The notes: a model not told the origin generated them from the sequence alone. 41,304 nucleotides of DNA from Candidatus Micrarchaeota archaeon (GCA_038046805.1 JBBSVO010000013.1:1-41304); one strand, 5' to 3'; positions 422 to 30,643 are shown, counted from the first letter of the stretch. Numbers and translations are program-made.

Positions 422-1407
422 TTTATCTTCACCGCCTTCCGGCCGTCTGATGATTTTTTAGCCGCAAGCGCAACCATCAGGGTTTTCTTTCCTTCATATC
501 CGTTAACGAGTGGAGTTTTGTTGTTCCGCACGCAGTCTATAAACTGCTTCATCTCATCAACATACATTTCGTTCGGTTCGCATTTAACGTCAATGGTTTC
601 TGTTTGTTTTGTCGAAGCATCATACACTTCTATTGCGGCTTTCGTGTAATCCCATTTCAGGGTTCCTTTCTCACCAATAAGTTCGCAATTGCGTGCGTAG
701 TCCTGTCTTACAAAATCCATATGAATTTGCGCGATTGAACCGCTTTTGAACTTTAGTGTCATATCTGCGGTGTCCTCGGTTTCCACTTCAAGACTGCTTA
801 CTTTTGCGGCTGTGCAATTGACTTCTGCCACTTCACCCATAAGCCATCTGGCATAATCTATTTCATGTGAATCGTCAAGAATTATCCCGCCACCCATGCT
901 TTTGCTTGCAGTATAGCTTTTCCTATAATCCTGGGTTGGTCTCCAGTTCGGGAGGTATTGACCAAAGAGCAGTCTTGCAGATAGAATCTTCCCAATCTTT
1001 CCGTTATCAATCAGTTCCTTTAGCTTTGCTATTCCTTTGTGAAATCTCAGGTTATATCCAACTGCGATTATTTTCTTCTTTTTTTCCGCTGCATTGAGCA
1101 GCGCGTCTACTCCTTTTCCATCGTGAGAAATCGGCTTTTCCATAAAGACATGTGCCTTGGCTGCCAACGCTTGCTTTGCAATCTGAACATGCAGATGTGG
1201 GGGGGTGCAAACAAGCGCTGCGTCTGGTTTTTCGTTGCGGAGGGCATCCTCTGCCTTTTCGTATGTTTTAATTCCTAAGTTTTCCTCAGCCCATTTTCTG
1301 TTATCCGGAACAATATCTGCACCTATAACCTCTTCTCCAAGTTCCTTGAGGTTTTTTGCATGTCTTCTGCCTATTGAGCCACACCCGATAATAAGAAACT
1401 TCATCAT
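418..1407 (-). CDS. Gfo/Idh/MocA family NAD(P)-dependent oxidoreductase
   Basis: IIGCGSIGRRH Rossmann motif, FMEKP, VGYNLRF, GGGIILDDSHEID. Start moved to ATG 1407/1404, which follows a GTGAT SD-like motif. Confidence 0.9.
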   Translation of the reverse strand: MMKFLIIGCGSIGRRHAKNLKELGEEVIGADIVPDNRKWAEENLGIKTYEKAEDALRNEKPDAALVCTPPHLHVQIAKQALAAKAHVFMEKPISHDGKGVDALLNAAEKKKKIIAVGYNLRFHKGIAKLKELIDNGKIGKILSARLLFGQYLPNWRPTQDYRKSYTASKSMGGGIILDDSHEIDYARWLMGEVAEVNCTAAKVSSLEVETEDTADMTLKFKSGSIAQIHMDFVRQDYARNCELIGEKGTLKWDYTKAAIEVYDASTKQTETIDVKCEPNEMYVDEMKQFIDCVRNNKTPLVNGYEGKKTLMVALAAKKSSDGRKAVKIK

Positions 1408-1435
1408 ATCACTTACAATTCTTTTCGTCAGAGAA

Positions 1436-1442
1436 TTATAAA
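1436..1442. promoter_or_regulatory. TATA box between divergent genes
   Basis: TTATAAA about 23 nt before ATG 1465 (+) and about 29 nt before ATG 1407 (-). Confidence 0.45.
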
Positions 1443-1464
1443 CCTTTCTTCCGAATACCCATAT

Positions 1465-2295
1465 ATGCCCGGACAAGCGAAAGCCGAGAAATCAAAGAAA
1501 CCTGACCGGAACCTTATAATTCATATTCCGGCTTATAATTCGGAAAATTCCATGTCAGACCTTCTAGTTCGGCTCGAAAAATCCGTTTCCGAGTTGAAAA
1601 AAAGCGGAATAACTACAAAACAGGTTATCGTAGTTGATGACGGAAGCACGGACTGCACGGTTAAGGTAATTCGCAGTGCGGAAAAAAGTTCAAATCTTCC
1701 ACTCACGTTAATCCAGAAAAAGAAGAACGAAGGGGCTACTGCTGCGGTTTTGGATGGAATGAAGGCCGCTCTTGACTATATTGATGCGAATGGCCTGCAG
1801 TTATCAAGCACAATTATTCTTCGTATGGATTCAGACCTTGAGCATCAGCCAGAGGATATTGCAAGGGTTCTTGCTCCAGTAGTTTCGGAGGTTGCAGTTG
1901 TTTCCGTTGGATATATTCAGTTCGATTCCCGCAGCGGTCTTTTTGCAAATTTCTTCAATGAAATGGTCGGTCTAAGTGAAAGTTCCCGCCTTGGAATGAA
2001 AATCCCGCAATTCTGCCCAGGTTTCGCAGCATTCCGCGCTGATGTTTTAAAGAAAGTTTTTCCGCAATTGCTTGTCGCAGCGGAGCGGTTCAAAAAAACA
2101 TTCGGGGTAGAAATGGTTACGCTTGATTTTGTCGCGTTAGCACTGGTAAAACTCAAATTCGGTTCAACAATTGAATCCGTGCGGCTCTCACCAATAGACG
2201 ATAAATGGATAAAGAAAATTCCATTAGGGAAGTTATGGAGATATCTCGATTTGCATAAAAAGACGATGGGATTTTTGGAGACATTTACTGTGTGA
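1465..2295 (+). CDS. GT2 family glycosyltransferase
   Basis: IPAYNSE, IVVDDGSTD, NEG and RMDSDLEH (DxD) motifs. Confidence 0.85.
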   Translation: MPGQAKAEKSKKPDRNLIIHIPAYNSENSMSDLLVRLEKSVSELKKSGITTKQVIVVDDGSTDCTVKVIRSAEKSSNLPLTLIQKKKNEGATAAVLDGMKAALDYIDANGLQLSSTIILRMDSDLEHQPEDIARVLAPVVSEVAVVSVGYIQFDSRSGLFANFFNEMVGLSESSRLGMKIPQFCPGFAAFRADVLKKVFPQLLVAAERFKKTFGVEMVTLDFVALALVKLKFGSTIESVRLSPIDDKWIKKIPLGKLWRYLDLHKKTMGFLETFTV

Positions 2296-2755
2296 TGCAC
2301 GCGTACGAAACGCATTCTTTATCTCCGCCCTTTTTAACGAATCCATTCTTCTCAAAAATCTTCTGGGATGGGATATTTCCTGGCTTAACACGCGCGATCA
2401 ATTTTTTTATTCCGAGCCGCGCCGAGATTTTTTTGATTTCCGCGATTGAGGCTATCCCAACTCCTTTTCCCTGAAATTCAGGGGAGATGAGGATATTTGC
2501 TTCGTAAGTTCCGGCATCGCCGTCTTGGTTATCCAGTCTAACTAGGCCGGAATCTTTTCCTTCAAATACAACGATATAAGAATAATTTTTCCTGTTCCGC
2601 AATCGTTTCTCCCAATAATCAGTATGTTCTTCCCATTTTATTTCAGAAGTCTGGAAGCTGTTTGCCCTTACGCTTTGGTCGTTGCGCCATTCAAATATTT
2701 TCTTTATATCCGCTTCTCGCACGGGTCGTAGTTCAATTATCTTTGCTTCATTCAT
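2285..2755 (-). CDS. pseH: GNAT N-acetyltransferase, PseH-like
   Basis: IFEWRND..VR..SF...I.WEEH..W N-terminus, FQGKGVG acetyl-CoA motif, N..S.K.FEK.GF; lies next to pseI. Confidence 0.75.
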   Translation of the reverse strand: MNEAKIIELRPVREADIKKIFEWRNDQSVRANSFQTSEIKWEEHTDYWEKRLRNRKNYSYIVVFEGKDSGLVRLDNQDGDAGTYEANILISPEFQGKGVGIASIAEIKKISARLGIKKLIARVKPGNIPSQKIFEKNGFVKKGGDKECVSYACITQ

Positions 2756-3795
2756 TCTACCATGCTCCGTTCCAAAGGAGTTCCTTTTTTCAAATCCTTT
2801 TTAGCTACCTTACCGAGCATTTCCTCATAGTGCCTTGGATGAAGGCCATTTCCAGGCCTGACAACGCGTATGTTTTCAGTAGTGAATTTATCTCCTTTCT
2901 TCATATCCTTGGCTACAAAAATAGACCTCATGGCAAACAGGTGTTTCTTTGTTTTCTCTCCAAGTTCGTATGTCACTTTTCCAAGAGCTTCTTCAGTTTC
3001 CCTGATTGCCGTCACCATGCTTTTGAATTCTGCAGGTTCAAGCGAAAATTCCACATCTGGTCCGCCAAGCTTACGATCAAGTATAAAGTGTTTTTCCACT
3101 ACTTTAGCGCCAACCGCAACTGCTGCCACTGCAACATTTGGATTCATGCTATGGTCTGAAAGACCTGCAACTACGCCGAATCTTTTGGCAATGTCGGGTA
3201 TGGTAAGCAGGTTCATTTCATTAAGCGGAGCAGGATACGCGCTTGTACACTTAAGAAGGATTATCTGCTCGTTTTTCTGCCCGCGAATCGTCTGCACGGC
3301 CAGTTCTATATCAGAGAGTGTCGCCACTCCAGTCGAAACCAGGATTGGCTTCTTCAGCCTTGCAGTATATTTTATCAGCGGAATATGGTTTATTTCAAAT
3401 GATGCAATCTTGTATGCAGGAACATCAAGTTTTTCAAGGAAATCAACTGCAGTTTCGTCAAACGGAGAAGAAAAGAATTCCAATCCCTCTTTTTTTGCCC
3501 TGTCCTGAAGCTCTGGAAACCAATCCCAGGGCGTATATGCCTCCTTGTAAAGATCATGGAGTGTTCGTCCATTCCAAAGTGTTCCTTTTATGCGAAAATG
3601 TTCGTTGTCCACGTCAAGCGTTATTGTGTCGGGAGTATACGTCTGAAATTTTACCGCGTCAGCTCCAGCTACCTTTGCTTCCCCTATCATCTTTAACGCA
3701 AGGTCTTTTTTCTGGAGGTGATTGCAGGATATTTCTGCAATTATGAAGACGGGTTTTCCTTCACCGATTCTTTTGCTTCCAATAGTGATTGTCAT
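2752..3795 (-). CDS. pseI: Pseudaminic acid synthase (NeuB/PseI family, with C-terminal SAF domain)
   Basis: FIIAEISCNH, DAVKFQTYTPDTIT, YKIASFE, LLKCTSAYPAP, GLSDHS, EKHF, RPGNGLHP. Probable ATG at 3795 after AGGTG. Confidence 0.92.
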   Translation of the reverse strand: MTITIGSKRIGEGKPVFIIAEISCNHLQKKDLALKMIGEAKVAGADAVKFQTYTPDTITLDVDNEHFRIKGTLWNGRTLHDLYKEAYTPWDWFPELQDRAKKEGLEFFSSPFDETAVDFLEKLDVPAYKIASFEINHIPLIKYTARLKKPILVSTGVATLSDIELAVQTIRGQKNEQIILLKCTSAYPAPLNEMNLLTIPDIAKRFGVVAGLSDHSMNPNVAVAAVAVGAKVVEKHFILDRKLGGPDVEFSLEPAEFKSMVTAIRETEEALGKVTYELGEKTKKHLFAMRSIFVAKDMKKGDKFTTENIRVVRPGNGLHPRHYEEMLGKVAKKDLKKGTPLERSMVE

Positions 3796-3818
3796 GGTTT
3801 GCACCTGTTTCCATATTC

Positions 3819-4958
3819 TTATTTACTTACACTTTCCTTTACTGCTTTTATTACGGTTTCTACATCCTCATCCTTTATTGAATGGAACATCGGAATTGAA
3901 ACAATCCGCGAATAAATTTCTTCGGTTACCGGGTAATCTTTCGGGTTTATTCCGAACTGCTTGTAATAGCTGAATTTGTAAATTGGAATGTAATGAACGT
4001 TTACGCCAATCCCGTTTGCGCGCATTTTGGAAAAAAACAAGTCCCGGTCTATTCCTTTTCCCACCAAAATCGTATACAAGTGCCATGCATGGCGGACATT
4101 TGATTTTACATGTTGAGGCGTAACCAAATCTGCCGTAGCCCCTGTTCCAGCAAACGCTTCCGCGTACATCTTCGCAACTGCTTCGCGCCTCTTCAAAAAT
4201 TCATCCGCTTTTTTCAATTGAGAAATTCCGAGTGCGCACTGGAAATCCGTAATGCGATAATTCCGTCCAAGTATTTTCATATCATAAACATATGTTGCCC
4301 GCTCGCTTGGCGTCTTGTCTATTCCGTGATTTCTAAGGAGTTTGAGCCTGGTACGAAACTCTTCGTTCTCTGTTGCTACTGCCCCGCCCTCGCCCGTAGT
4401 AATATGTTTTACCGGGTGAAAACTGAACGCAGTCATATCTGCAAGTGAACCAACGCGCTTCCCGGAATATTCAGCCCCTAAAGCATGACAAGCATCTTCA
4501 ATCAGCATGAGGCCATGATCTTCCGCAATCTCTTTAATCTCCTTTATGTCGCACGGATGCCCGGCATAATCCACGTAAATTATTGCCTTTGTTTTCTTTG
4601 TTATTTTTTTCAGAATTTGTTCCGGATCAATATTATACGTCTGCGGGTCAATATCTGCGAATACGGGTTTGCATCCGTTATATAACACGCAATTCGCATC
4701 AGCTGAAAAAGTAAACGGGGTAGTTATTATCTCGCTTCCTGGCGGCAATTCCAATGCTCCAACTGCAATATCAAGCGCGCTTGTGCCGGAATTTACAGCA
4801 ACACAGTGTTTTGTTCCAACATAGCTGGCGAGCGCATCTTCAAACTCACCAACCTTTGGTCCGGTTGTGAGGAAATCGCTCCCGAGCACTTCCGTAACCG
4901 AGCGGATATCTTCCTCATCGATAGTTTGACGCCCATATGGAATATTCTTGTTGGCCAT
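3819..4958 (-). CDS. pseC: UDP-4-keto-6-deoxy-HexNAc aminotransferase (DegT family, PseC-like)
   Basis: IPYGRQTI, LTTGP, NSGTSAL, IEDACHALGA, FSFHPVKHITTGEGG (PLP Lys), NYRITDFQCALG. Confidence 0.9.
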   Translation of the reverse strand: MANKNIPYGRQTIDEEDIRSVTEVLGSDFLTTGPKVGEFEDALASYVGTKHCVAVNSGTSALDIAVGALELPPGSEIITTPFTFSADANCVLYNGCKPVFADIDPQTYNIDPEQILKKITKKTKAIIYVDYAGHPCDIKEIKEIAEDHGLMLIEDACHALGAEYSGKRVGSLADMTAFSFHPVKHITTGEGGAVATENEEFRTRLKLLRNHGIDKTPSERATYVYDMKILGRNYRITDFQCALGISQLKKADEFLKRREAVAKMYAEAFAGTGATADLVTPQHVKSNVRHAWHLYTILVGKGIDRDLFFSKMRANGIGVNVHYIPIYKFSYYKQFGINPKDYPVTEEIYSRIVSIPMFHSIKDEDVETVIKAVKESVSK

Positions 4959-4978
4959 TTTATGTACCCCCCGCGTTG

Positions 4979-5374
4979 TTAATCTTCGAAAGCATACTTT
5001 ATCGTGTCTTCAATGTCGTGCGAATCCGAGAACACAACCAGCATTGCATCTTCTTTCCCAATGTTTTTTATTGCATGGGCAATGCCTGGCAGTATCTCCA
5101 GTATCGGCACGTTTTTTCCGTTATTTGTTAGTTGAACCGAACTCCTTTTGTTGGTTTTGGTATCCGCGAGAGTTACCTCGACCACCCCAGTCACCACGAA
5201 TATCTGCTCTTTCTTATGTTCATGGTAATGTTTTGCCCTGGTTTTTCCTGGTTTTATGGAAACCAGATAGCTGTGCGCAGGTCTGCTGCCGATTCCAAAA
5301 TCCCGCTCGGAATAAAGTTCCACAAGAAAGCCGTCGTCGCGGTGCTTAATTTCCCTGGTTTGCGGAATATTCAT
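4979..5374 (-). CDS. Cupin-fold sugar epimerase/isomerase (WxcM/FdtA/RmlC-like)
   Basis: DDGFLVE, PGKTRAKHYH...E, ILPGIAHAIKN cupin motifs. Confidence 0.75.
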   Translation of the reverse strand: MNIPQTREIKHRDDGFLVELYSERDFGIGSRPAHSYLVSIKPGKTRAKHYHEHKKEQIFVVTGVVEVTLADTKTNKRSSVQLTNNGKNVPILEILPGIAHAIKNIGKEDAMLVVFSDSHDIEDTIKYAFED

Positions 5375-5422
5375 AAATATTATACGCCGTGCCGTATTTT
5401 AAACCATTATTTACATTATTAA

Positions 5423-6586
5423 ATGCGTGTAACTATGTCCAAACGACTTGATTCAATTGCTAATTCTGCGACAATGCAGATGAAAGAAAGGGTAAATGCG
5501 ATTAAGGCCAGTGGCGCCAAAATAGCAGACTTAACAGTTGGCGAATCGGATTTCGATACTCCCGAAGTGGTAAAGCAAGCGGCAATCGAAGCCATTAACA
5601 AGAATTTTACCCGTTATACGAGCGCAAGCGGTATCCCTGAACTAAGGAAGGAACTTTCGCAGTTTTTGAAGAGTCATAACAAAATCGATGCCAGTCTGGT
5701 TGGCCCAGACAACGTTCTCGTAACTCCGGGCGCAAAACAGGGTTTATTCTACATTCTCGCATCTCTTCTGAATGAAGAGGATGAGGTAATCATCCCAGAA
5801 CCCTGCTGGGTTAGTTACGGAGATATTACTAAGGTAAACGGCGGGGCCCCGGTTTTTGTCCAAAGTTCGGAAAAAAGCAGCTTTATCCCGCAAATTTCAG
5901 ATATCCGATTTGCGATGACAAGGCGAACGCGTGCCATACTGATAAACAACCCTGTAAATCCAACAGGTGCGTTTTATGAAAAAGAATACATCCGGGAGCT
6001 CGTGGAGCTGTGCGACGAGCGGGGTATTCCACTTATTTCTGACGAAATCTATTCCGACATCATGTTCGAAGACAATACATTCTATTCTGCAATGGAAACA
6101 AAAAGTCCTAATGTAATCCTGCTAAGCGGGCTTTCAAAAACTGCGGCAATGACTGGATGGCGTCTTGGTTATGTCGTAGCGGAAAACAAATTAATCCGAG
6201 ATTGTTTGAAGCTGCAACAACAAACCGCAACCTGCCCCTCATCAATAACCCAATATGCTGCAATTGCTGCATTGAGAAACTACGAAAGTTATTTCCCAAA
6301 AATGCTGGTGGAATATAAAAAACGCAGAAGAATGCTGGTTGACGGAATACGCAATACCTCAAAATTCAGTTGTTTTGAGCCAAAGGGCGCGTTCTATGTT
6401 TTCATGAATATCTCCAAGTTAGGCGTTTCTTCGGAAGAGGCAACCTCTCTCCTGCTTGAAAAGGCGCAGGTGGCATCTGTTCCGGGCTCTGCATTTGGGA
6501 AAAGCGGAGAAGGTTACGTGCGGTTATCATTTGCAACAAGCGAGGCGAATATCGAACTTGCATTATCAAATCTGGCAAATCTGTGA
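5423..6586 (+). CDS. Class I/II PLP-dependent aminotransferase (aspartate aminotransferase-like)
   Basis: VGESDFDTP, YTSASGIPELR, NNPVNPTG, ISDEIY, LSKTAAMTGWRLGY, GAFY, VRLSFA. Alternative start at 5435. Confidence 0.92.
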   Translation: MRVTMSKRLDSIANSATMQMKERVNAIKASGAKIADLTVGESDFDTPEVVKQAAIEAINKNFTRYTSASGIPELRKELSQFLKSHNKIDASLVGPDNVLVTPGAKQGLFYILASLLNEEDEVIIPEPCWVSYGDITKVNGGAPVFVQSSEKSSFIPQISDIRFAMTRRTRAILINNPVNPTGAFYEKEYIRELVELCDERGIPLISDEIYSDIMFEDNTFYSAMETKSPNVILLSGLSKTAAMTGWRLGYVVAENKLIRDCLKLQQQTATCPSSITQYAAIAALRNYESYFPKMLVEYKKRRRMLVDGIRNTSKFSCFEPKGAFYVFMNISKLGVSSEEATSLLLEKAQVASVPGSAFGKSGEGYVRLSFATSEANIELALSNLANL

Positions 6587-6601
6587 CGGAGTCCTGGTAA
6601 A

Positions 6602-6976
6602 ATGGGAATTCGGAATCCTGTTAGTGTTCGTGGCATAGGAATTGATGTAGAGTCCATCTCTCGTTTCAGGAAACCAGAAACAATGAAAGCTGGTTTTGTG
6701 AAAAAGACATTTACTGGTAAGGAGCTTGCGTATTGCAATTCAAAGCGTGATCCCGCTCCCTCACTCGCTGCGAGATATGCGGCAAAAGAAGCACTCTTTA
6801 AGGCATTCAGCGGCATGGGCGTTAAATGTCCTGGATATAACAATATTGAAATTCTAAATAAAGAGAACGGCGCCCCAATCGTTAGGATTATTAAGGAGGG
6901 ATATGCTAAATTCAATATTCTTGTCAGTCTTTCACACAGCGGGGATATGGCAATCGCTTTTGTAATAATAACCTGA
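6602..6976 (+). CDS. acpS: Holo-ACP synthase (4'-phosphopantetheinyl transferase)
   Basis: GIGIDV, FT..E..Y, ARYAAKEALFKA, G.P and VSLSHS signatures. Confidence 0.92.
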   Translation: MGIRNPVSVRGIGIDVESISRFRKPETMKAGFVKKTFTGKELAYCNSKRDPAPSLAARYAAKEALFKAFSGMGVKCPGYNNIEILNKENGAPIVRIIKEGYAKFNILVSLSHSGDMAIAFVIIT

Positions 6977-6994
6977 GTTGTTTGGGTAATCTCC

Positions 6995-8056
6995 ATGAAA
7001 AAAGTCAATATTCTTGAAACTACTTTGCGCGACGGAAGTTACGCAGTAAATTATTCCTTCACTGCTCTGGATACTGCTACAATTTCCAGGCAGTTGGAAC
7101 TGGCAGGCTTCGAATATATCGAAATAGGTCATGGTGTTGGTTTCAATGGAAGCACCAAAGGTTATGGCAAGGCTGTTGCAACAGACGAAGAATACCTGAT
7201 TGCTGCGAAAGGTGCTCTGAAAAATTCAAAATTCGGAATGTTTTGCATTCCAGGAATTGCAGAAGTTGAAAACATTGACATGGCCCACAAGCATGGAATG
7301 AGTTTTGTAAGAGTAGGGACAAACGTAACCGAAATCCCGAAATCCGAGGACTTCATAAAGCGTGCAAAGGACTGTGGAATGTTCGTTGCTGCCAATTATA
7401 TGAAATCATACGCGCTTCCTCCAAGAAAATTCGCTGAAAATGTTCTTCTTTCTGAAAAATACGGGGCGGATATGGTTTATCTGGTTGATTCAGCTGGAGG
7501 AATGTTTACGGAAAACGTTCTTGAATATTATAATGCAATTCGCTCTGTTTCTGATATTCCGGTTGGTTTCCATGGACATGATAATCTTGGTCTTGCAATT
7601 GCGAATAGCATCGCGATAGCAGAAGCAGGCGCTTCCTTCGTAGATTCTTCGCTTCAGGGGCTTGGAAGAAGTTCTGGAAATGCCACCACTGAGATTCTTG
7701 TTGCGGCACTGATGAAAAAAGGCTATGCGCTTGGGATAGACTTTATAAAAACTCTTGAGCTAGGGCAGAAATACATAAATCCGATTCTGCCATTTAAGGG
7801 CAAAATGCCGCTTGATATCGTTTCAGGCTATGCTGATTTCCATTCAAGTTATATGCACAAGATAGAGAAATATTCCGTGAAATATTCGATCAATCCATGC
7901 ATTCTCATCATAGAGCTTTGCAAGGTGGACCGGGTAAATGCCAGTGATGAGGTCCTGGAGAAAATCGCCCAGCGAATAAAAAAAGACGAAGAGTTCTATC
8001 TTGCAAAATACGATTTTGGAAAGTATGTCGGCGGGGAGCAGGATGAGCTTAAATAA
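6995..8056 (+). CDS. 4-hydroxy-2-oxovalerate aldolase-like protein (DRE-TIM; DmpG/MhpE family)
   Basis: ETTLRDGSY, IEIGHGVG, YLVDSAG, GFHGHDNLGLAIANS, GLGRSSGN. Confidence 0.85.
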   Translation: MKKVNILETTLRDGSYAVNYSFTALDTATISRQLELAGFEYIEIGHGVGFNGSTKGYGKAVATDEEYLIAAKGALKNSKFGMFCIPGIAEVENIDMAHKHGMSFVRVGTNVTEIPKSEDFIKRAKDCGMFVAANYMKSYALPPRKFAENVLLSEKYGADMVYLVDSAGGMFTENVLEYYNAIRSVSDIPVGFHGHDNLGLAIANSIAIAEAGASFVDSSLQGLGRSSGNATTEILVAALMKKGYALGIDFIKTLELGQKYINPILPFKGKMPLDIVSGYADFHSSYMHKIEKYSVKYSINPCILIIELCKVDRVNASDEVLEKIAQRIKKDEEFYLAKYDFGKYVGGEQDELK

Positions 8057-9641
8057 TGGAAAGGATTTGGGCGATGCAAACGGCATAACCACATATAGGG
8101 AAGAGCGTTTCTCTTCCCGTTTGTCGCAGAGTGGCGACTCTGCTCCATCCCTGAAAACTGTTTTCCTGGCTAATTGGGACCAGCCATTCATTTTTGATGC
8201 ACTTAATGGGAGAGAACGTGCGGTAACCTATGGCGAATTTTTACATCTTTCAATCCAGCTTGGCAAAATGCTTGAAACATTTCGTGTAGACCGCGGAAAC
8301 ACGATATGCGTAATGATGAATAATTCTGTTGAACTTGCTGAGACTTATCTTGCCTCGCTTATTTCCGGAATAGTTGTTGTTCCGCTTGATCCGCTTAAGG
8401 GAGAAAACGAGGTAAAGGAAATACTTTCTTATGCTGGCCATAAACTGACTTTGTGCAATTTCACTGGCGGGCTTTCGGACATCGCTGACAAGAAGCCGAT
8501 AATTAAGATAAAATCGTTTAGTGATTACGCAGATTCTGATATCCTTTCCGATAAAAAAGATCTCGGGATACTGGATAACATCGATGCTGGAAAGCCATTT
8601 CTCAATACTTTCACTTCCGGTTCAACAGGGGTTCCAAAAGGAGTGATTCATTCATTCAGGAATGTGTATTTGACTTCAATTGCGTTCGCAAAGCGGTTCA
8701 ATTTCAACTCCGGCAGCGTTTTCTATCATAATCTTCCCATGACATATATGGCCGGAATATTGAATCTTTTTTTCATGCCCATGATTTGCGGAAGCAAGGT
8801 CGTTGTTGGAGAAAGATTCGGAATCGCAGCAATGCCAAGATTCTGGGATTTTCCGATAAAATACTCTGCGAATACCTTTTGGTTCATTCCTGCGATGTTA
8901 GCGCTTTTGATGAAGCTTGACCGCGGAAGTAGCGGGGTTGAATATGCGAAAAGAACTGTTATCACGGGTTTGGTTGGAACCGCACCGCTCAACCAGAAAT
9001 TAAGAAGGGATTTTGAAAAGCGATATGGAATTCCGCTTTATGAAAGCTACGGGCTTTCCGAAACCCTGTTTGTTTCAACAAACTCCCCCAAAGGGGTTGC
9101 CGGAGGAAGCGGGGATGGAGTTGGAAAACCGCTTGATATGGTAGAATTGAATTTTCAAGAAGACAAGGAAATATCTATCGGAGTTCCATGGATGTTTTTG
9201 GGCTATAGTAACGTAGATGCAAAGCAGTCCTTTTCTGGAGAGAAATTTTTATCCGGAGATCTGGGTGAATTCGAAAGTTCCAGCGGGTTTCTGAAAATCA
9301 CAGGAAGAAAAAAAGACCTTATAATACGAGGCGGAATCAATATAAGCCCAAGAAGGACTGAGGAATTTGTTGCGCATTCGGATCTTTTTGAGGAAAGCGC
9401 GATAATCGGTGCGGAAGATGCGAATCTTGGAGAGAAGACCATTTGCTTTTTTGTTCCGCGGAAAGGCGTTTACAGTGAAGATGCGAGAAAGCAACTTAAT
9501 CGGGACATTATTGAAAAACTCGGAAAAGATTATCAGGTTGACGAGTTTGTTGAGCTTCAGGAAATTCCAAAGAACATAAACGGAAAGGTAGATAAGCCAA
9601 AGCTTAGGAAAATCTACAAATCGGGTCGTGGGGCGGAATAA
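8043..9641 (+). CDS. ANL-superfamily adenylate-forming enzyme (acyl/aminoacyl-ACP or CoA ligase)
   Basis: FTSGSTGVPKG, SYGLSET, SGDLG, GRKKDLIIRGG, PKNINGKVDK. ATG 8043 follows GGAG. Confidence 0.9.
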   Translation: MSLNNGKDLGDANGITTYREERFSSRLSQSGDSAPSLKTVFLANWDQPFIFDALNGRERAVTYGEFLHLSIQLGKMLETFRVDRGNTICVMMNNSVELAETYLASLISGIVVVPLDPLKGENEVKEILSYAGHKLTLCNFTGGLSDIADKKPIIKIKSFSDYADSDILSDKKDLGILDNIDAGKPFLNTFTSGSTGVPKGVIHSFRNVYLTSIAFAKRFNFNSGSVFYHNLPMTYMAGILNLFFMPMICGSKVVVGERFGIAAMPRFWDFPIKYSANTFWFIPAMLALLMKLDRGSSGVEYAKRTVITGLVGTAPLNQKLRRDFEKRYGIPLYESYGLSETLFVSTNSPKGVAGGSGDGVGKPLDMVELNFQEDKEISIGVPWMFLGYSNVDAKQSFSGEKFLSGDLGEFESSSGFLKITGRKKDLIIRGGINISPRRTEEFVAHSDLFEESAIIGAEDANLGEKTICFFVPRKGVYSEDARKQLNRDIIEKLGKDYQVDEFVELQEIPKNINGKVDKPKLRKIYKSGRGAE

Positions 9642-10358
9642 ATGATAATTCAGATCGATCATATTGCTTTTTCATCAATGAATTTCGCGGAACATATCCG
9701 CATCCTCCAATCTCTCGGCTATTTGCTTAAGTTTTCATCAACCGGGAAAAAGAACATGGAAATAAAGCGTTCACTTCTAAGAGAATTCGGAGAATCACAC
9801 GATCTTGCACTCCTCACCCACGTGTCCAGCATTCCAATCGAATTGCTCAACCACGGCCACGTAAATACTTCTGAGGGATATATCTTTCCTTTATTTGACA
9901 ATGCACCGGACGAATTTCTCAAATCAATCGGGGTTGGTGCAGGCGTGTCGTCATATAATGGTTCGTTCCGGTTCAACAAATTCGTAGTGAAAACAAGCGA
10001 CGTCCGGAAAAGCGCTGATTTCTGGAAGAATTTTGGTTTTCGCGAAATATCGTGCGGTTCTGAAGCTGCGCTTCTCGAGTTTCGCTCTCCTTTAAGCAAG
10101 GTTTCCTGCACCATTTTCCTTAAGCACGACACCGCTGTCGAAAACCAGAAATATTTCCTTGACGATATGGGATTTAACTGCATTGCATTCATTTCAAACT
10201 CTGCGAAAAAAGAACGCGAGGCACTGATTAAAAACGGAATAAAAACAACAGAAATAGAACAATTCACTTCAAATAATACTCCGCTCAATGTTTTCTTTGC
10301 AATTGGGCCTGCCGGGGAAGTGGTTGAGATTATTGAGCCGCAGAAAGTAAAAAAGTAA
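9642..10358 (+). CDS. VOC/glyoxalase-fold protein (two-module)
   Basis: IDHIAF..., IPIELL, KSADFWKNFGF, FFAIGPAGEVVEII. Confidence 0.65.
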   Translation: MIIQIDHIAFSSMNFAEHIRILQSLGYLLKFSSTGKKNMEIKRSLLREFGESHDLALLTHVSSIPIELLNHGHVNTSEGYIFPLFDNAPDEFLKSIGVGAGVSSYNGSFRFNKFVVKTSDVRKSADFWKNFGFREISCGSEAALLEFRSPLSKVSCTIFLKHDTAVENQKYFLDDMGFNCIAFISNSAKKEREALIKNGIKTTEIEQFTSNNTPLNVFFAIGPAGEVVEIIEPQKVKK

Positions 10359-10367
10359 GGTGAATCT

Positions 10368-11066
10368 ATGGTCAAACCAGATTACGATGCAAAAAAGGAA
10401 TGGACGAATACGTTTATTGCCCAGAGCGAAATGGCGTATCCCGCGGAATGGGTTATTCGCATCTTCAAGGGCAGTTATCCAAAGCTTAATCTGGACAAAC
10501 CTTCTTTTAATGGAAAGAAAATCCTTGATATCAGCTGCGGAGATGGGTGCAACATGCCTTTGCTTGCGCGTTGCGGATTTGAGGTTTACGGAACAGAAAT
10601 AACCTCCGGGATTGCAGCCAAGACGATGTCAAACCTTGCTGCGGTTGGAGTGCATTCCGATATCAGGGTTGGAACAAACGACAATCTTCCATTTGAAAGC
10701 GAATTTTTTGATTATCTTTTGTCTTGGAACGCGTGCTATTACATGGGCGCATTACGGGATTTCGGAAAGCATGTTTCGGAATATTCCCGTGTCATGAGAC
10801 AGGACGGTTATTTAGTGATGTCAATCCCGAAGAAAACCTCGTTTATATTCAATGGAAGCGACCCTGCGCCAGAGGCAGGTTACAGGATAATCAGGAACGA
10901 CCCTTACAAAATCAGAAACGGGGAATCCTTGCGTGTTTTCGAAGACGAAAAAGAAATAGAAGAAACGTTTTCATCTCATTTCAAGGATTTCATGTTCGGA
11001 GATATCCACGATGATTGCTTTGGAAGGGAATATCATTGGCATATTGTAGTGTGCAAGAGGAAATGA
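10368..11066 (+). CDS. Class I SAM-dependent methyltransferase
   Basis: KILDISCGDG motif I, VYGTE, LPFESEFFDYL; GGTGA SD. Confidence 0.85.
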   Translation: MVKPDYDAKKEWTNTFIAQSEMAYPAEWVIRIFKGSYPKLNLDKPSFNGKKILDISCGDGCNMPLLARCGFEVYGTEITSGIAAKTMSNLAAVGVHSDIRVGTNDNLPFESEFFDYLLSWNACYYMGALRDFGKHVSEYSRVMRQDGYLVMSIPKKTSFIFNGSDPAPEAGYRIIRNDPYKIRNGESLRVFEDEKEIEETFSSHFKDFMFGDIHDDCFGREYHWHIVVCKRK

Positions 11067-11067
11067 A

Positions 11068-12408
11068 CTAATCTATCTTTTTTATCAACCCAACTTCCCC
11101 CAGCGCATCTGCCGCAGCCTTTATCTGCCTGAATTTCATTTTTGAGCGGATTGAGATATCAAGAAGGGAATTTTTTCCATCGGAAAGGTTCAAGACCCAG
11201 AACACCGCAAGCTCGTCGATTGCGTCTTTGTTTCCGCCATCTTTCTGTCCGCCGATCATTCGATAAAGCCCTCGCCGACCCAGTTGTGGCTCGCATTTGG
11301 GATTCTGATTAAGATAAGTCTTATTATTCTCAAGAATGAAAATTACGTCTAGGTATTTTGCGAGCGAGTCGCCGAGCGCATTTGGCTTTACAAAATCCAG
11401 ATTATCCGCCGAAGTATGATATTCCGGGAATTTCCCGTACATTGTTCGCATGAGCGACCCAATCGGCATGTCAAATGCAGGAGAGCAGAATTGCCTTTCA
11501 TCGCTTCCAGATGGGAAGAAATCCACAATTTCGTGCGGTTCTCCGGAATCAATAAGAACCTTCTCGGCTGCCTTATCTATGCTGGCATCTCCTTGCCTGC
11601 TTTTCTTATAAGTCATTTTTCCCGAATCTCCACAGCAGGTTGCAACAAGCCCATGTTTTATGTTTTTTATCTTTCCTTCGTTCAGACTCAACCATGTGAT
11701 TGCACCGATCGTTTCCGGGATAAAAATAAATCTATAAGAAAATTTATGTTTCCCGCCAAGCGCGATTATTTTTTTGGCAAGTTCGGTTGCCAACACGACT
11801 CCGCTCAGGTTATCATTGCAAAGTGATGGGTGGCAAAGATAGGTTGATATCAAAACCTCTTCCTCGCTCTGTCCCTTCACAAGAAGTTCCCCATACGTAA
11901 GGTTTCCGTCTTTTAGTTCGGAATCAATCACGACTTCATAATCTCTTTCTTTTCCTTCTCCACCCGCATCGTCCTTCACGAGCGTTTCATACTCTTTATG
12001 CGTAATGCAAAATCCCCAATTTTCTTTATAGTAAGAAGTAAGATACGGAATCCAGTCTGGATGCTGTGGAATGGTAAACAAATGTTCTTTTAACTCGGAA
12101 AATTTCATTTTTTTCTGCACAGGAACGCTATAATTCAAAACATGGATATTCAGTTTTTTGAATTCCGCGATTTTCTTTCCGTTTGGGCAGACGATATATG
12201 CATCCTTTATGTTCCATTCCTTTGGCACTGTCCAGTCAAACGCCTTTGTGCCTGTAGGAACTTCGTGAATCTCGATGGGTACGCTCTCTTTGATTATGCG
12301 CAGTGTTTCCCGCACTCCGTTTCCGGTTATGCTTCGGCATATCGGGTAAATCTTTTTCATGAGTTCATGCATGTAAACTCCATTCGCCATGTCCTCATTG
12401 GTTGCCAT
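11068..12408 (-). CDS. DUF4910 family protein (M28 aminopeptidase-like fold with C-terminal winged HTH)
   Basis: YPICRSITGNGVRETL, FDWTVPKEWNI, IPYLTSYY..NWGFC, STYLCHPS, PETIG, GSDERQF, EYHTSADN, CEPQLGRRGLY. Confidence 0.88.
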   Translation of the reverse strand: MATNEDMANGVYMHELMKKIYPICRSITGNGVRETLRIIKESVPIEIHEVPTGTKAFDWTVPKEWNIKDAYIVCPNGKKIAEFKKLNIHVLNYSVPVQKKMKFSELKEHLFTIPQHPDWIPYLTSYYKENWGFCITHKEYETLVKDDAGGEGKERDYEVVIDSELKDGNLTYGELLVKGQSEEEVLISTYLCHPSLCNDNLSGVVLATELAKKIIALGGKHKFSYRFIFIPETIGAITWLSLNEGKIKNIKHGLVATCCGDSGKMTYKKSRQGDASIDKAAEKVLIDSGEPHEIVDFFPSGSDERQFCSPAFDMPIGSLMRTMYGKFPEYHTSADNLDFVKPNALGDSLAKYLDVIFILENNKTYLNQNPKCEPQLGRRGLYRMIGGQKDGGNKDAIDELAVFWVLNLSDGKNSLLDISIRSKMKFRQIKAAADALGEVGLIKKID

Positions 12409-12410
12409 AG

Positions 12411-13226
12411 TTATTCCACCTTATCTCCCTTTATCAGAAACGCAGGATTTTTCAAAAGCTCACTTTGTATAAGCGTGACAACGTCTTCTGCCTTCATGCA
12501 TAGAACACTTCCCTTTCCAAGCTTAACAACCTTTGCAAGTCCCAGTTCTTTTGCCTTTTTGTCAAATTTAGTGAAATCTGCCTCGTTGTTCGACTTTGCA
12601 AGGTCATAAACATAATGATAGTATGTTCGGTCTTCTTCAATGCCGTTTACTATCGCCTTTCCCGGAAATCCCTTATCATATCTATAGGGGACTGTGATCT
12701 TCTTTTCCACGTAATGAATTAATGTTGAACCGGAATCAAAATTAAAATTGCAGATTTTTCCTCCAGCGCTCAGAAACTTTTCCCAGAACGAGTTTGGCCC
12801 AAAAGAATGTTCCGGCGCATTTTTGGTGAATTGTTCCGCATTTTTTCCAATCGCGGCAATCGAAAAGTTCGCATCATCGGAACGAATCGCTTCTGGATCT
12901 TTCCTCACCATTTCGGAAAAAAGACCGCAGACACTCGGAGTGGTTTTTTTGTCGTAGGGCTGCTTTTTGCAAAACGAATACGAAAATGCCGGAACTACGA
13001 GTGTTCCGCCATCGTTTCCATGGTCTCCGCTTTCGCCTTTCCCGCTGCCTATTACTTCAAATATCGCTTCCTTGAAAACTCTATAATAATCGTCCTGGTT
13101 CTTCGCCCCTTCTAACCGTCCAAAGAATCCGATATTGCTATGGATGAAGATACTGTCCCCTTTTGTTATTCCAACTTCCAGAAGTGCCTGTATAATGTCA
13201 TTTTTTGAATAGTCGCTTCCAGTCAT
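12411..13226 (-). CDS. AAC(3)/YokD family acyltransferase
   Basis: GITKGDSIFIHS, GTLVVPAFSYSF, G.FSE..R, S.AAIG, STLIHYVE...VPYRY.K. Confidence 0.85.
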   Translation of the reverse strand: MTGSDYSKNDIIQALLEVGITKGDSIFIHSNIGFFGRLEGAKNQDDYYRVFKEAIFEVIGSGKGESGDHGNDGGTLVVPAFSYSFCKKQPYDKKTTPSVCGLFSEMVRKDPEAIRSDDANFSIAAIGKNAEQFTKNAPEHSFGPNSFWEKFLSAGGKICNFNFDSGSTLIHYVEKKITVPYRYDKGFPGKAIVNGIEEDRTYYHYVYDLAKSNNEADFTKFDKKAKELGLAKVVKLGKGSVLCMKAEDVVTLIQSELLKNPAFLIKGDKVE

Positions 13227-13487
13227 CTATTTTCCCCCCAGCTTCCTTTGTATTATTTCCGCAAGCCCGTTTATGGTTGAAAACTCGCGGTTCTGGAATT
13301 CCTCGTTTGAAAACCGTATTCCAAATTCGTCCTCAATATCACTTACAAAACTTATGAATTTCAGGGAGTCTATCCATCCTTTCTCAAAATAGCTGACTGA
13401 TACTCCATTCCCAATTTCATCCTTCTTCATATCTGTATTCTTTTCAAACCATGAAATGAGCCATAACTTTATTTGTTGAGGTTCCAT
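13227..13487 (-). CDS. Acyl/aminoacyl carrier protein
   Basis: 86 aa acidic protein with GWIDSL (Ppant Ser), IEDEFGIRF and STINGLAEII. Confidence 0.85.
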   Translation of the reverse strand: MEPQQIKLWLISWFEKNTDMKKDEIGNGVSVSYFEKGWIDSLKFISFVSDIEDEFGIRFSNEEFQNREFSTINGLAEIIQRKLGGK

Positions 13488-13507
13488 TAGTTCATCCCCG
13501 TATAAGT

Positions 13508-14179
13508 CTATTTGAACAGGATTGCTCTTGCCGTGGATCCGTCCGCTCCTTTTATTTTAAGCGGAAGGGCAGCAATCGTCCATCCTTCGTATTCGGTTAC
13601 ATTTTCAAGATTCAAATATTCAACAAGTGCGATTCCGTTGCGCAGGAAGATTTTATGTATCGGGGAATCTTCCTCAGTGCCAAGAATCTCCCCGCTTAGT
13701 TTTATTCTGCTGTCATCAGGGGAAGCAGTGTCCAGTCCGACCATTTCCACTCCGCGCGCAACCAGGATCTCTGCCGCCTCCTTCGTGAAATAAGGATACC
13801 CAACATAAAATTTTTTCGTGTTCCAGTGCTTGCTCCAACCAAATTTGAATATGACTCTTTTTCCTATCTTCAATTTTTCAAGCATCTCTGCAGTTACTGC
13901 GGAATTTTCCATTTTTCCGAGTTCGCTAAAATCAATAATTGTTACCTCCCCGACTAATTTCTCAAGTGAAACCTTGTCTATACTGTTTCCACCTTTTACA
14001 AAATGAAGCGGGGCATCAACCTGTGTTCCAGTGTGCGTTCCGAATGTTATCTTGCGTGTTTCTCTTCCCTCAACGTCATGTCTTCCCATCTGCGTTATCG
14101 AAACAACCGGATGCCATGGCGCGCCGAATGTTAGCATGCCCTCTTCAATAAGATATGTAAGGTCAATTATCTTTTTCAT
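13508..14179 (-). CDS. Cyclase / kynurenine formamidase family metal-dependent hydrolase
   Basis: IIDLT, HTGTQVDAPLH, GLDTASPD, HKIFL..G..LVEYL, ALPLKIKGADGS.ARA. ATG 14179 follows GGTGAG. Confidence 0.85.
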   Translation of the reverse strand: MKKIIDLTYLIEEGMLTFGAPWHPVVSITQMGRHDVEGRETRKITFGTHTGTQVDAPLHFVKGGNSIDKVSLEKLVGEVTIIDFSELGKMENSAVTAEMLEKLKIGKRVIFKFGWSKHWNTKKFYVGYPYFTKEAAEILVARGVEMVGLDTASPDDSRIKLSGEILGTEEDSPIHKIFLRNGIALVEYLNLENVTEYEGWTIAALPLKIKGADGSTARAILFK

Positions 14180-14196
14180 AATCTCACCATGGTTTT

Positions 14197-15186
14197 TCAC
14201 TTCTTCTGCTCTGATGCCTTCATCCATTCAATTGTTTTCCTTATTCCGCTTTCCAGGCTTGTTTTTGCCTCCCACCCAAGAAGTTTTTTTGCCTTTGAAC
14301 TATCGCAGAGAAGTTTCATTATCTCAGCCTGTGGGTGATGGTGCGGAACATGTTTTATTTTGGACTTGTTGCCAACTGTTTCATTTACTATTTGGGCAAG
14401 GTCGTTTATTGATACGTCCTTTCCAGTGCCTGCGTTTATTATTTCTCCTACTGCTCTGTCGTTTTTTACTGCCATTGAAATAAACTCCGCGCAGTCTTCC
14501 ACATAAAGTAAATCTCTTGTTTGCTTTCCCTCACCAAAAATGTTAAGGTCTTGTTCGTCCAGTGCTCGTTTTATGAAAATGTTCACCACGCCGCCTTCCA
14601 TATTTGTTTTTTGGAAAGGACCGTATATATTGAATGGCCGAAGTACGACTACCGGAAGTCCAATTCCCCTATAATACGAAAGTGCAAGCTCCTCTGCCGC
14701 CATTTTAGAGCCGGCATATGGGGACGCAGGTTTTGTTGAATGCGTTTCTGAAATCGCAGTTCCGGATGCTGTACCAGCCGTGTCATAAACCATGCATGTT
14801 CCAACGAGAATAAGTTTTGTTTTTCTGCTGCCTTTCTGAGATTTTCTGCATTCCTCAAGCACATTATATGTTCCGACAACGTTGTCTTTGAACGCCTTTT
14901 CAGGGAAATCCAAAGATTCCTGGACGTTTATCTGCGCTGCGCAATGAATACATACGTCAGGTGCGAATGATGCGAATACCTTTTCAAGTTCATTGACATT
15001 TGTTATGTCTCCTCCAACAAAAACGAATTTTGAGTTGTAACTTTTATTTTTCATAAATTCAATAATGTTTTCTTCGCTTCCATTTGAAAGATTATCAAAT
15101 GCAGTTACACTATCTCCTTCATCAAGAAATCTTTTGACAACCCATCTTCCGAGAAATCCGGCACCGCCGGTTACAAGAACGCGCAT
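14197..15186 (-). CDS. NAD-dependent nucleotide-sugar epimerase/dehydratase
   Basis: VLVTGGAGFLG, PYAGSK (YxxxK), RPFNIYGP, TRDLLYVED. Confidence 0.92.
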   Translation of the reverse strand: MRVLVTGGAGFLGRWVVKRFLDEGDSVTAFDNLSNGSEENIIEFMKNKSYNSKFVFVGGDITNVNELEKVFASFAPDVCIHCAAQINVQESLDFPEKAFKDNVVGTYNVLEECRKSQKGSRKTKLILVGTCMVYDTAGTASGTAISETHSTKPASPYAGSKMAAEELALSYYRGIGLPVVVLRPFNIYGPFQKTNMEGGVVNIFIKRALDEQDLNIFGEGKQTRDLLYVEDCAEFISMAVKNDRAVGEIINAGTGKDVSINDLAQIVNETVGNKSKIKHVPHHHPQAEIMKLLCDSSKAKKLLGWEAKTSLESGIRKTIEWMKASEQKK

Positions 15187-15228
15187 TCAAATCACTCGAT
15201 TATCCAATTTATCTGCTAAAAGCTTCTT

Positions 15229-16269
15229 TCACTTCAGGAATCCGGTTTCCACAAGAAGTTTTTTTATCTCATCCATTGTCATCATCTTTTCATCTGAGGA
15301 ACGATAATTCGCATGCTTTGCCGGCTTTGTATTGGAATAGCGGGTTGTGTCAATGGAAAACAGGTCCTTAAGCGCTGGCGGAATCAAAATGAACATTTCA
15401 TTTGCCTCAAGCGCGCTTAGTGCTTCCTCCTCAGTCATCAATTCCTCGTACATTTTTTCCCCTGGAATTGCGCCTATGATTTTTTTCTTTATTTCCGCCG
15501 GTTTATGTGCAAATTTTCCGGCAATCTCCGAAATCATCACGTCTGCCAAATCATCTATTCTAAGGACAGGCATCTTAAGCACGAATACCTCTCCACCCTG
15601 TGCAATTTCTGTTGCCTTGAAAAGAAGCTTGAGCGTATGTTTTAATGTCATAACAAATCTGGTCATTTTAGTGTCAGTTATTGTTACCGGTCCGCCCTTT
15701 GCAATCTGTTTTTTAAATAGCGGAACAACAGAACCTCGGGAACCGAAAACATTTCCGAATCTCACGCTTGCAAATACGCACCTTCTGGAACCTTTGTAAT
15801 AATTGGCCGCGGTGACAAGTTTTTCCCCAAGTAATTTGGTAGTTCCCATCACATTAGATGGATGGGCTGCCTTATCGCTGCTTGTAAATACGAACTTCTC
15901 AACGTTCGCGTCAAGTGCGGTATCAAGTACATTCTGAAGTCCTACCACGTTGGTTTTTACTGCCTCAAAAGAATTATACTCACACGCAAGAACATGTTTC
16001 ATCGCCGCGCAATGGAATACGATATCAACGCCTTCAAACGCGCGCTTCATTCTATCCTTGTCCCGCACGTCCCCTATAAGGTATCTTACTCTATTACCCT
16101 CATCCAGTTTCCTGAAGGCATGCGCCATTTCAAATTCGCGGGTTTCGTCTATATCTAGTACCCGGATTGCCTTCGGATTCATTGGAAGAAGTTCCTTTAC
16201 AATCTCTCTTCCAACCGAACCGGTTCCTCCTGTGACAAGAATCGTCTTTCCTTCAAATATATTTGCCAT
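15229..16269 (-). CDS. pseB: UDP-GlcNAc 4,6-dehydratase (PseB/FlaA1/CapD family)
   Basis: ILVTGGTGSVG, GDVRD, HCAAMKHV, TSSDKA, MGTTK, VRFGNVFGSRGSVVP, MTRF, GEKMYEEL. Confidence 0.8.
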   Translation of the reverse strand: MANIFEGKTILVTGGTGSVGREIVKELLPMNPKAIRVLDIDETREFEMAHAFRKLDEGNRVRYLIGDVRDKDRMKRAFEGVDIVFHCAAMKHVLACEYNSFEAVKTNVVGLQNVLDTALDANVEKFVFTSSDKAAHPSNVMGTTKLLGEKLVTAANYYKGSRRCVFASVRFGNVFGSRGSVVPLFKKQIAKGGPVTITDTKMTRFVMTLKHTLKLLFKATEIAQGGEVFVLKMPVLRIDDLADVMISEIAGKFAHKPAEIKKKIIGAIPGEKMYEELMTEEEALSALEANEMFILIPPALKDLFSIDTTRYSNTKPAKHANYRSSDEKMMTMDEIKKLLVETGFLK

Positions 16270-30633: not shown

Positions 30634-30643
30634 GGTGTAAAAC

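Follow-up and report, generated by a model that had tools for sequence, protein, structure and literature searches.

An acyl carrier protein cassette with a distinct DmpG-like aldolase in a pseudaminic-acid-type locus of a micrarchaeon, probably serving N-acylation of a surface amino sugar

The window analysed here is a 41,304-nt contig of a Candidatus Micrarchaeota archaeon (GCA_038046805.1 JBBSVO010000013.1). Positions 5423–14179 carry ten genes, all with intact open reading frames (ORFs) on inspection, which include a stand-alone acyl carrier protein (ACP), a ligase, and an N-acyltransferase and lie inside a pseudaminic-acid-type locus. These genes most likely form a mobile, ketosynthase-free acyl-tailoring cassette, whose acceptor here would most likely be a pseudaminic-type nonulosonate. 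We assign a probability of roughly 0.65 to the reading that the cassette attaches an aldol-derived acid, by way of the ACP, to the nitrogen of a surface amino sugar; gene content, retained catalytic residues, and conserved linkage were observed, and every reaction was deduced from them. The initial annotation of the window had named the same ten genes, and all of them are present: nine have the expected Pfam or NCBIfam matches, and the exception, the VOC protein, was recognized by its predicted fold. The genes are as follows.

5423..6586, plus strand: class I/II aminotransferase dependent on pyridoxal phosphate (Pfam, E 8e-69); optional part of the cassette
6602..6976, plus strand: AcpS-type phosphopantetheinyl transferase (TIGR00516, 63.2 bits, cut-off 59.8)
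6995..8056, plus strand: DmpG-like class II pyruvate aldolase of a distinct subfamily (NF006049 over cut-off; TIGR03217 273, under its cut-off of 286)
8043..9641 (from 8001 if the longest ORF is taken), plus strand: ANL adenylating enzyme, similar to acyl-coenzyme A (CoA) ligases (Pfam)
9642..10358, plus strand: two-domain VOC (glyoxalase I-like) protein (structure prediction; no Pfam match)
10368..11066, plus strand: class I methyltransferase dependent on S-adenosylmethionine (Pfam); optional
11068..12408, minus strand: DUF4910/DUF2172/HTH_47 single-zinc M28-like protein of the Cj1295/CA_C2195 family (Pfam)
12411..13226, minus strand: AAC(3)-fold N-acyltransferase of a cassette-specific subfamily (Antibiotic_NAT, E 5e-30)
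13227..13487, minus strand: stand-alone PP-binding ACP with Ser41 in WIDSL (Pfam)
13508..14179 (or to 14227), minus strand: cyclase-family (kynurenine-formamidase-like) metal hydrolase (Pfam)

The genes are arranged in two convergent, tightly packed blocks and not in a single operon. The longest ORF of the ANL enzyme begins with TTG at 8001; the ATG at 8043 corresponds to the start of the orthologue and overlaps the aldolase stop codon.

Conservation of the gene set was surveyed with an alignment of 55 AAC(3)-fold homologues as query. The best 80 of 183 metagenome stretches were kept; merging of near-identical loci left 73, of which 35 were retained (at least 10 kb, same-genus twin dropped), with flanks of at most 10 kb. 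Both an ACP and an ANL ligase were found in all 35 loci. A VOC protein was present in 29, DUF4910 in 28, the cyclase in 24, the aldolase in 22, the methyltransferase in 21 (plus 4 with an alternative methyltransferase), the aminotransferase in 18, AcpS in 17, and an M29/NicX-like protein in 10. A minimal form, carried by G546, consists of AcpS, aldolase, ANL enzyme, cyclase, ACP, and AAC(3)-fold transferase, and lacks the VOC protein, methyltransferase, and aminotransferase. Fusions of ACP and AAC(3) occur in L146, L148, L149, and L108, and ANL-aminotransferase fusions also occur. Separately, the fused ACP-AAC(3) gene in L146, L148, and L149 is followed by an MBOAT gene, and the cassette there is broken by HNH/BRCT and AAA genes.

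The proposal of the initial annotation that the ACP, the ligase, and the AAC(3)-fold transferase act jointly on a surface amino sugar is upheld by the constant presence of ACP and ANL ligase, the ACP-AAC(3) fusions, and a Campylobacter relative described in the accessible text of PMC3068675. ACP-dependent N-acylation of a surface amino sugar as such is strongly favored. Ser41 of the ACP is invariant (45/45 aligned sequences), and this ACP is the sole PP-binding match in the genome. No ketosynthase is encoded in the cassette, as had been noted before, and the single PF00109 match of the genome is a thiolase. The AAC(3)-fold protein scored below the cut-off of every AAC(3) resistance family (NCBIfam AAC_3: 59.7 bits vs. 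270), and genes annotated as "AAC(3) family" in loci of this kind probably do not confer resistance. A complex prediction for this protein with the ACP returned a score of 0.01, which counts neither for nor against the pairing.

In adenylation domains of nonribosomal peptide synthetases (NRPS), an Asp in the A4 motif binds the amino acid. The A4 region of the ligase is of the acyl-CoA-ligase type (HNLPMTYMAG) and lacks this Asp; the sequence argues for a carboxylic acid substrate, without deciding between CoA and ACP. Characterized AAC(3) enzymes use acetyl-CoA, and the best structural relatives of the ligase are CoA ligases, as would be expected if the ligase made an acyl-CoA used directly by the AAC(3)-fold enzyme, with the ACP as a secondary or vestigial shuttle. 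This is very improbable given an ACP in 35/35 loci, with an invariant Ser and either next to AAC(3) or fused with it, and given that 17/35 loci have a dedicated AcpS nearby. In fatty acyl-AMP and carrier-protein-specific ligases, the canonical CoA pocket is reported to be blocked (PMC8460268, accessible part).

The aldolase shares its fold, its metal site (R12, D13, H193, and H195 retained), and its communication domain with the catabolic DmpG/BphI 4-hydroxy-2-oxovalerate aldolases (PDB 1NVM), but is only about 35% identical to catabolic DmpG. Comparison with 1NVM showed that the active-site His20 and Tyr290 of catabolic DmpG (motifs TLRDGSH and GYAGVY) are not matched: the two residues are exchanged, giving Y16 and H283, and the Leu87 equivalent is F83. 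The Y16/H283 pair and the Phe are invariant in 28/28 cassette aldolases and in 120/120 further homologues (the best 120 of 2524 matches to a related query). The exchange is also seen in aldolase P0336 of Anaerosporobacter mobilis. Tyr290 and Leu87 determine C4 stereochemistry in BphI (PMC3962088, accessible part). Judged by its sequence, the aldolase is a distinct DmpG subfamily with swapped active-site His and Tyr. Provided that N-acylation is ACP-dependent, the acyl group is very likely to be aldol-derived. The cyclase of the window keeps H65, D71, H191, and E203.

Since each of the folds is also represented in catabolism or resistance, the genes might be a cluster for catabolism or detoxification (meta-cleavage aldolase, formamidase, VOC dioxygenase, and aminoglycoside acetyltransferase) that by chance has come to lie in a sugar locus. 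The altered aldolase active site, the AAC(3) scores far under the resistance-family cut-offs, the ACP and ligase linkage in 35/35 loci, and the repeated glycan-locus setting make this extremely improbable. Likewise, no DmpF partner (PF09290) was found in the host genome (1.2 Mb, 86% complete).

Two mutually exclusive front ends serve one ACP/AAC(3) pair. The first is the aldolase with the cyclase (22 loci), the cyclase being present wherever the aldolase is (22/22). The second is an M29-like hydrolase with an aminotransferase (10 loci); here, the aminotransferase is present in 10/10 and often fused to the ligase, and aldolase and cyclase are found in none. One or other of the metal amidohydrolase-like genes (cyclase or M29-like) occurs in 34/35 loci. 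An FkbH gene lies near 4/35 related loci, and distant AAC(3)+ACP pairs carry other acyl-making front ends, either MaoC-fused (L003) or composed of ANL, iron-dependent alcohol dehydrogenase (Fe-ADH), LuxE, LuxC, and VOC genes (L195). The latter locus (L195:2730-10338, G967), from Patescibacteria, has AcpS, ACP, ANL, Fe-ADH, LuxE, LuxC, VOC, and AAC(3) genes near a NeuB gene.

The initial annotation had favored a (hydroxy)amino-acyl product modeled on butirosin. In the 4-amino-2-hydroxybutyrate branch of butirosin biosynthesis (BtrI, BtrJ, BtrH, and BtrG), γ-glutamyl protection is added by an ATP-grasp ligase and removed by a cyclotransferase. A comparable route here, with the two hydrolases removing a protecting group, would suit the aminotransferase of this cassette and of the M29-type loci as well as the metal amidohydrolase-like gene in 34/35 loci, and aldolase plus transaminase would yield a 4-hydroxy-2-amino acid. 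The aminotransferase is present in only 8/22 aldolase-type loci, so an aminoacyl product would be optional; it is missing from the other 14 and from G546. There is a single ligase with an A4 region of the carboxylate type, no protecting-group ligase, and no ATP-grasp or GGACT domain in the ten cassette genes (Pfam), and DUF4910 is mostly ACP-independent (see below). The protection/deprotection route is therefore improbable. An amino-acyl product by any route is weakened by the aminotransferase counts and by the ligase, and we regard it as doubtful.

The DUF4910 protein matched PDB 3K9T (CA_C2195) with E 6e-172 and all three zinc ligands retained; it keeps H193, D199, and H331 as well as the non-canonical S195 and P231. 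Its closest relative (83% identity) comes from a member of the Micrarchaeota that also carries this cassette. Among 80 genome loci anchored on DUF4910, an ACP was found in 4, AAC(3) in 6, and the ligase in 6. As DUF4910 occurs mostly without an ACP, it appears to work independently of it, and it is probably not an ACP-editing enzyme; the deprotecting or editing step on ACP cargo that had been assigned to it is not borne out. The ACP-free DUF4910 clusters (63/80, many from Nitrospira; L002–L080) have C-methyltransferase-, RmlC-type epimerase-, dehydratase-, and nucleotidyltransferase-like members. The predicted structure of the 9642–10358 protein (mean pLDDT 92.7) gave GLOD4 and a two-domain glyoxalase I as best Foldseek matches (E 2e-10). 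The model shows paired βαβββ modules with His/Glu metal ligands, which places the protein in the VOC superfamily, and H7, K42, E67, and E229 are invariant in 38 aligned homologues. The methyltransferase is paired with the VOC protein in all 21 of its loci.

The genes flanking the cassette are as follows.

14197..16269, minus strand: nucleoside-diphosphate-sugar short-chain dehydrogenase/reductase (SDR) and PseB/FnlA-like 4,6-dehydratase (Pfam/NCBIfam)
2285..5374, minus strand: cupin, PseC aminotransferase, PseI synthase, and GNAT acetyltransferase (Pfam/NCBIfam; PseC and PseI over cut-off)
2..1476, minus strand: Gfo/Idh/MocA oxidoreductase and SpsF/KdsB-like cytidylyltransferase, truncated at the contig end (Pfam)

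The setting between pseB and pseC/I/H given in the initial annotation stands for PseI (TIGR03586, 487 > 340) and PseC (TIGR03588, 460 > 423.5), whereas the PseB-like (321 < 408) and PseH-like (54 < 93) proteins fall under their NCBIfam cut-offs. The cupin (4979–5374) and the second SDR (14197–15186) additionally lie between pseB and pseC. The SpsF/KdsB-like CMP-transferase occupies 2–421, and the window further encodes GT2, GT4, and a Wzx flippase (Pfam). The run at 29608–40427 consists of large unannotated ORFs (341, 1137, 217, 329, and 1550 aa) that include stretches of low complexity or coiled coil; the first, the sole one scanned, gave weak coiled-coil matches.

A class III aminotransferase gene on contig C6 of the host genome (G000:C6:265162-267495 = L200:5163-7496) is split by an intein-like insert with a LAGLIDADG domain. 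Its insert-free orthologue adjoins the CMP-transferase in a sister genome (L197), which indicates that the sugar locus continues on contig C6. Genes for an acetyltransferase and a methyltransferase lie there too, as does a glycosyltransferase-like gene. Contig C6 further carries four copies of a short intergenic repeat (core GATGCAGGGGAAG; L200:7538-7570, 9113-9155, 12118-12160, and 19031-19073), which surround an AAA-ATPase and a Schlafen/ATP-binding-like gene.

The neighborhood search that had been set beforehand as a test found the modules mostly with nonulosonate markers: a pathway marker was present in 24/35 loci, NeuB or a CMP-transferase in 19/35, and most of the remaining loci show other sugar genes on their maps. 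The same acylation could have another acceptor, namely a 4-amino-6-deoxyhexose or other amino sugar of a Wzx-exported glycan. The second SDR, cupin, GT2, GT4, and flippase of the window fit such an acceptor, the PseC product already bears a free amine, the class III aminotransferase beside the sister genome's CMP-transferase could make another amine, and 11/35 loci lack nonulosonate markers. PseI and PseC nevertheless score over their cut-offs here, markers may be missed because flanks were at most 10 kb, and the Campylobacter relative modifies N5 of pseudaminic acid (PMC3068675, accessible part). We consider another acceptor unlikely.

For N-acylation of a nonulosonate with an aldol-derived acid, the following sequence of steps can be proposed. 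AcpS would prime Ser41 of the ACP with phosphopantetheine from CoA, which is probably scavenged, as no CoaBC was found in the 86% complete genome. The swapped aldolase would couple a 2-oxo acid such as pyruvate with a small free carbonyl to give a 4-hydroxy-2-oxo acid, with an acceptor or C4 configuration presumably unlike that of DmpG. The cyclase-family hydrolase may process the aldol product or its precursor (lactone/lactam or amide hydrolysis), and the ANL enzyme would adenylate the acid and load the ACP. Optionally, the VOC protein might epimerize or isomerize and the methyltransferase methylate the intermediate, and the aminotransferase might either introduce an amine or provide the 2-oxo acid. 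Transfer of the acyl group from the ACP to a free sugar amine would then fall to the AAC(3)-fold enzyme. DUF4910 would act on the sugar; by analogy with Cj1295, it may free the N5 amine while the GNAT enzyme acetylates N7, giving Pse5(acyl)7Ac. That the acylated position is N5 of the nonulosonate is, on this analogy, slightly short of an even chance.

A bolder version is tentative and leans toward the doubtful. It describes an undescribed ketosynthase-free carrier-protein assembly line with interchangeable front ends, in which the swapped aldolase would act with non-DmpG stereochemistry, possibly on the ACP, the cyclase would close a lactone or pyrrolidone ring, and a repurposed AAC(3)-fold enzyme would transfer acyl-ACP to the nonulosonate, giving a sugar new to any organism.

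Several points weigh against N-acylation of a nonulosonate with an aldol-derived acid. The nearest solved relatives of the ligase, MenE and MatB (E 1e-28), are CoA ligases, and PltF, a carrier-protein ligase, ranks behind them (E 7e-19). Gln69 of the window cyclase replaces the second metal-binding His of the motif, which is His in most homologues. In 11/35 loci no nonulosonate marker lies within the surveyed DNA, and in 7/35 DUF4910 is not nearby. A different, ACP-free sugar gene set makes up 63/80 DUF4910 loci (neighbor families read from sequence), so an amidase role of DUF4910 is tentative, and Das et al. left transacylation possible for this family (PMC4000134, accessible part). No GT28_C (PseG-like) domain was found in the 86% complete host genome, and AglB/STT3 was found neither there nor in the same-genus genome; STT3 matches in relatives were weak (16/37 genomes searched). 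The host negatives (CoaBC, DmpF, GT28_C, and STT3) are weakened because the genome is incomplete.

The closest known system is Campylobacter Cj1295-Cj1299 and not butirosin, which had been proposed as the model; the Campylobacter and Clostridium cassettes are closer and published, and the cassette has one ligase and no γ-glutamyl protection enzymes. According to the accessible text of Hitchen et al., the 5-N-(2,3-di-O-methylglyceroyl)-pseudaminic acid of flagellin depends on Cj1295, which was proposed to remove the N5 acetyl group (PMC3068675). Das et al. (2014) solved the Clostridium homologue CA_C2195 (PDB 3K9T) and suggested that it transacylates or deacylates an amino sugar (PMC4000134, accessible part). 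The supplement of that paper gives the C. jejuni order pseB-pseC-DUF4910-AAC(3)-AAC(3)-ACP, and the paper places DUF4910, AAC(3), ACP, AAC(3)-HAD, and glyoxalase genes beside SpsE/SpsF in C. acetobutylicum. The supplement also lists as DUF4910 neighbors a phosphopantetheinyl transferase and an aldolase in Nitrosopumilus maritimus, an aldolase and a ligase in Grimontia hollisae, and the order cyclase-small ORF-AAC(3)-DUF4910 in Vibrio coralliilyticus and Octadecabacter arcticus (PMC4000134); these were likened to the cassette by listing alone, and the N. maritimus entry was not counted as independent of G546. Such cassette-like neighbor sets are not discussed in the accessible main text of PMC4000134. 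In the archaeon Halorubrum, a nonulosonate glycan has been described (PMC6137143), and the accessible parts of two 2026 papers give no mechanism (PMC13130089, PMC13317340). No paper on the chemistry of the aldolase/ligase cassette was found in the literature within reach, which excluded subscription papers and bioRxiv supplements.

Like Cj1295-Cj1299, the window combines DUF4910, an AAC(3)-fold transferase, and a stand-alone ACP within a pse locus; these and a methyltransferase adjoin pseB/pseC in Campylobacter jejuni. The two differ in acid supply, which here comprises aldolase, cyclase-family hydrolase, and ANL ligase, and the target in Campylobacter is flagellin. The Campylobacter loader is presumably an FkbH-type glyceryl loader. 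No FkbH/HAD glyceryl loader was found among the window ORFs scanned (Pfam/NCBIfam), and the ANL ligase and aldolase stand in its place. By analogy, the cassette would resemble the Campylobacter acyl-tailoring system in its working and differ in loader and precursor enzymes. The C. acetobutylicum locus (CA_C2186-2199) likewise holds DUF4910, AAC(3), ACP, glyoxalase, nonulosonate synthase, and cytidylyltransferase in a single locus, but has an AAC(3)-HAD fusion and an ATP-grasp ligase instead of aldolase and ANL enzyme.

The perosamine tetronate genes of Vibrio cholerae O1 encode an ACP, an ANL ligase, Fe-ADH, LuxC/LuxE-like proteins, and an acyltransferase. There, too, ACP and ANL ligase bring an unusual hydroxy-acyl group to a sugar amine, but the front end is reductive and lacks aldolase and cyclase; L195 holds a look-alike with AAC(3) and VOC genes. 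The hydroxypyridylhomothreonine (HPHT) branch of nikkomycin biosynthesis uses a DmpG-like aldolase, an ANL ligase, and an ACP-aminotransferase. The nikkomycin and butirosin pathways resemble the cassette in that a hydroxy-amino acid, made by aldol chemistry or while tethered to an ACP, is finally placed on an amino sugar; the cassette differs from them in lacking an aldehyde dehydrogenase partner, an ATP-grasp ligase, and γ-glutamyl protection, in its transferase fold, and in the optional amine. What is new and open to testing is the swapped aldolase, together with the pair of mutually exclusive front ends.

Other organisms, bacteria among them, carry the cassette as well. Named carriers include Babeliales, Kaiserbacteria, and Wildermuthbacteria loci, and single proteins of the AAC(3) subfamily were found in Ignavibacteriales, Lentisphaerae, Thermoproteota, and Aenigmatarchaeota. 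The subfamily is rare, with strong matches in 3/401 Micrarchaeota genomes (two more weak), 1/201 Nitrosopumilaceae (two more intermediate), 0/301 Nanoarchaeia (one intermediate), and 1/301 Patescibacteria (one intermediate). Viral contigs held no relative of it, and plasmids had distant AAC(3) proteins (≤30% identity) and catabolic DmpG (≤36% identity among the 25 matches listed). The patchy spread over both domains suggests lateral movement. The phylogenetic check for bacterial transfer did not demonstrate it: the AAC(3) tree was weakly resolved (12/58 branches starred), and the approximately unbiased test did not reject a tree in which the six named archaeal sequences form one clade (p-AU 0.912, constrained tree better by 31 log units; seven rows that were long, outgroup, or duplicate had been removed beforehand). 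In a five-gene tree (quick search, LG+G4), three Micrarchaeota cassettes and two contigs grouped together (SH-aLRT 99), apart from the Nitrosopumilaceae cassette. The GC content of the cassette (41–44%) and its GC3 (0.36–0.48) match the genome, and there is thus no compositional sign of recent transfer.

According to the accessible text of Lombard et al. (PMC3533463), few archaea have any ACP machinery, which was acquired from bacteria. AcpS was found in 25/301 Micrarchaeota genomes, mostly in a different cluster. Given its bacterial carriers, finding the cassette in an archaeon is less of an oddity than the initial annotation had held. A second, commoner ACP system of Micrarchaeota clusters genes for phosphotransacetylase, acetate kinase, AcpS, ACP, a DUF35/ChsH2 zinc ribbon, and a thiolase-like protein; sequence inspection showed it at 14 of 17 listed AcpS loci outside the cassette (L208–L221, L222 = G261:C1:398000-412000, L223 = G236:C1:66000-80000). 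Pfam matches confirmed the ACP in four genomes and Pta, AckA, thiolase, and DUF35 in two. This system could represent ACP-linked thiolase chemistry in archaea.

The assembly of the locus was compared with public groundwater runs. Contigs from runs X8 and X9, neither of which is flagged as a possible source, cover 30/30 bins of positions 1–17000, nearly all at ≥99% identity. An X9 contig (5240–5859) spans the cupin/aminotransferase junction and an X8 contig (10419–11748) the methyltransferase/DUF4910 junction, so both strand switches are bridged. The eight short contigs that an RNA run yielded for the region are no measure of transcription. The same-genus genome (L001) matches all ten genes and their order at 67–93% identity, its aminotransferase being cut by the contig end. 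Repeat searches found chance-level repeats only in 1–21000, and the two-strand layout is therefore not explained by an invertible or phase-variable element.

Non-acetyl N-acylation of sialic-acid-like sugars is largely unsolved, the Campylobacter dimethylglyceroyl route resting, in the accessible literature, on one knockout. The cassette is a compact set of ten soluble enzymes with a comparative map of obligate core, two front ends, and optional tailoring, which opens the question to in vitro work. It would be a case of carrier-protein chemistry in an archaeon that lacks fatty-acid synthase genes and of an AAC(3)-fold enzyme that takes acyl-ACP, and it would provide a naturally occurring aldolase with the active-site exchange that engineers use to alter stereochemistry. 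If the bolder version above is correct, the ACP/AAC(3) pair would be a plug-in diversifier of cell surfaces, combined with aldolase/cyclase or M29-like/aminotransferase front ends and, in distant relatives, FkbH or LuxCE, and used even by a genome-reduced archaeal symbiont that seemingly draws CoA from its host.

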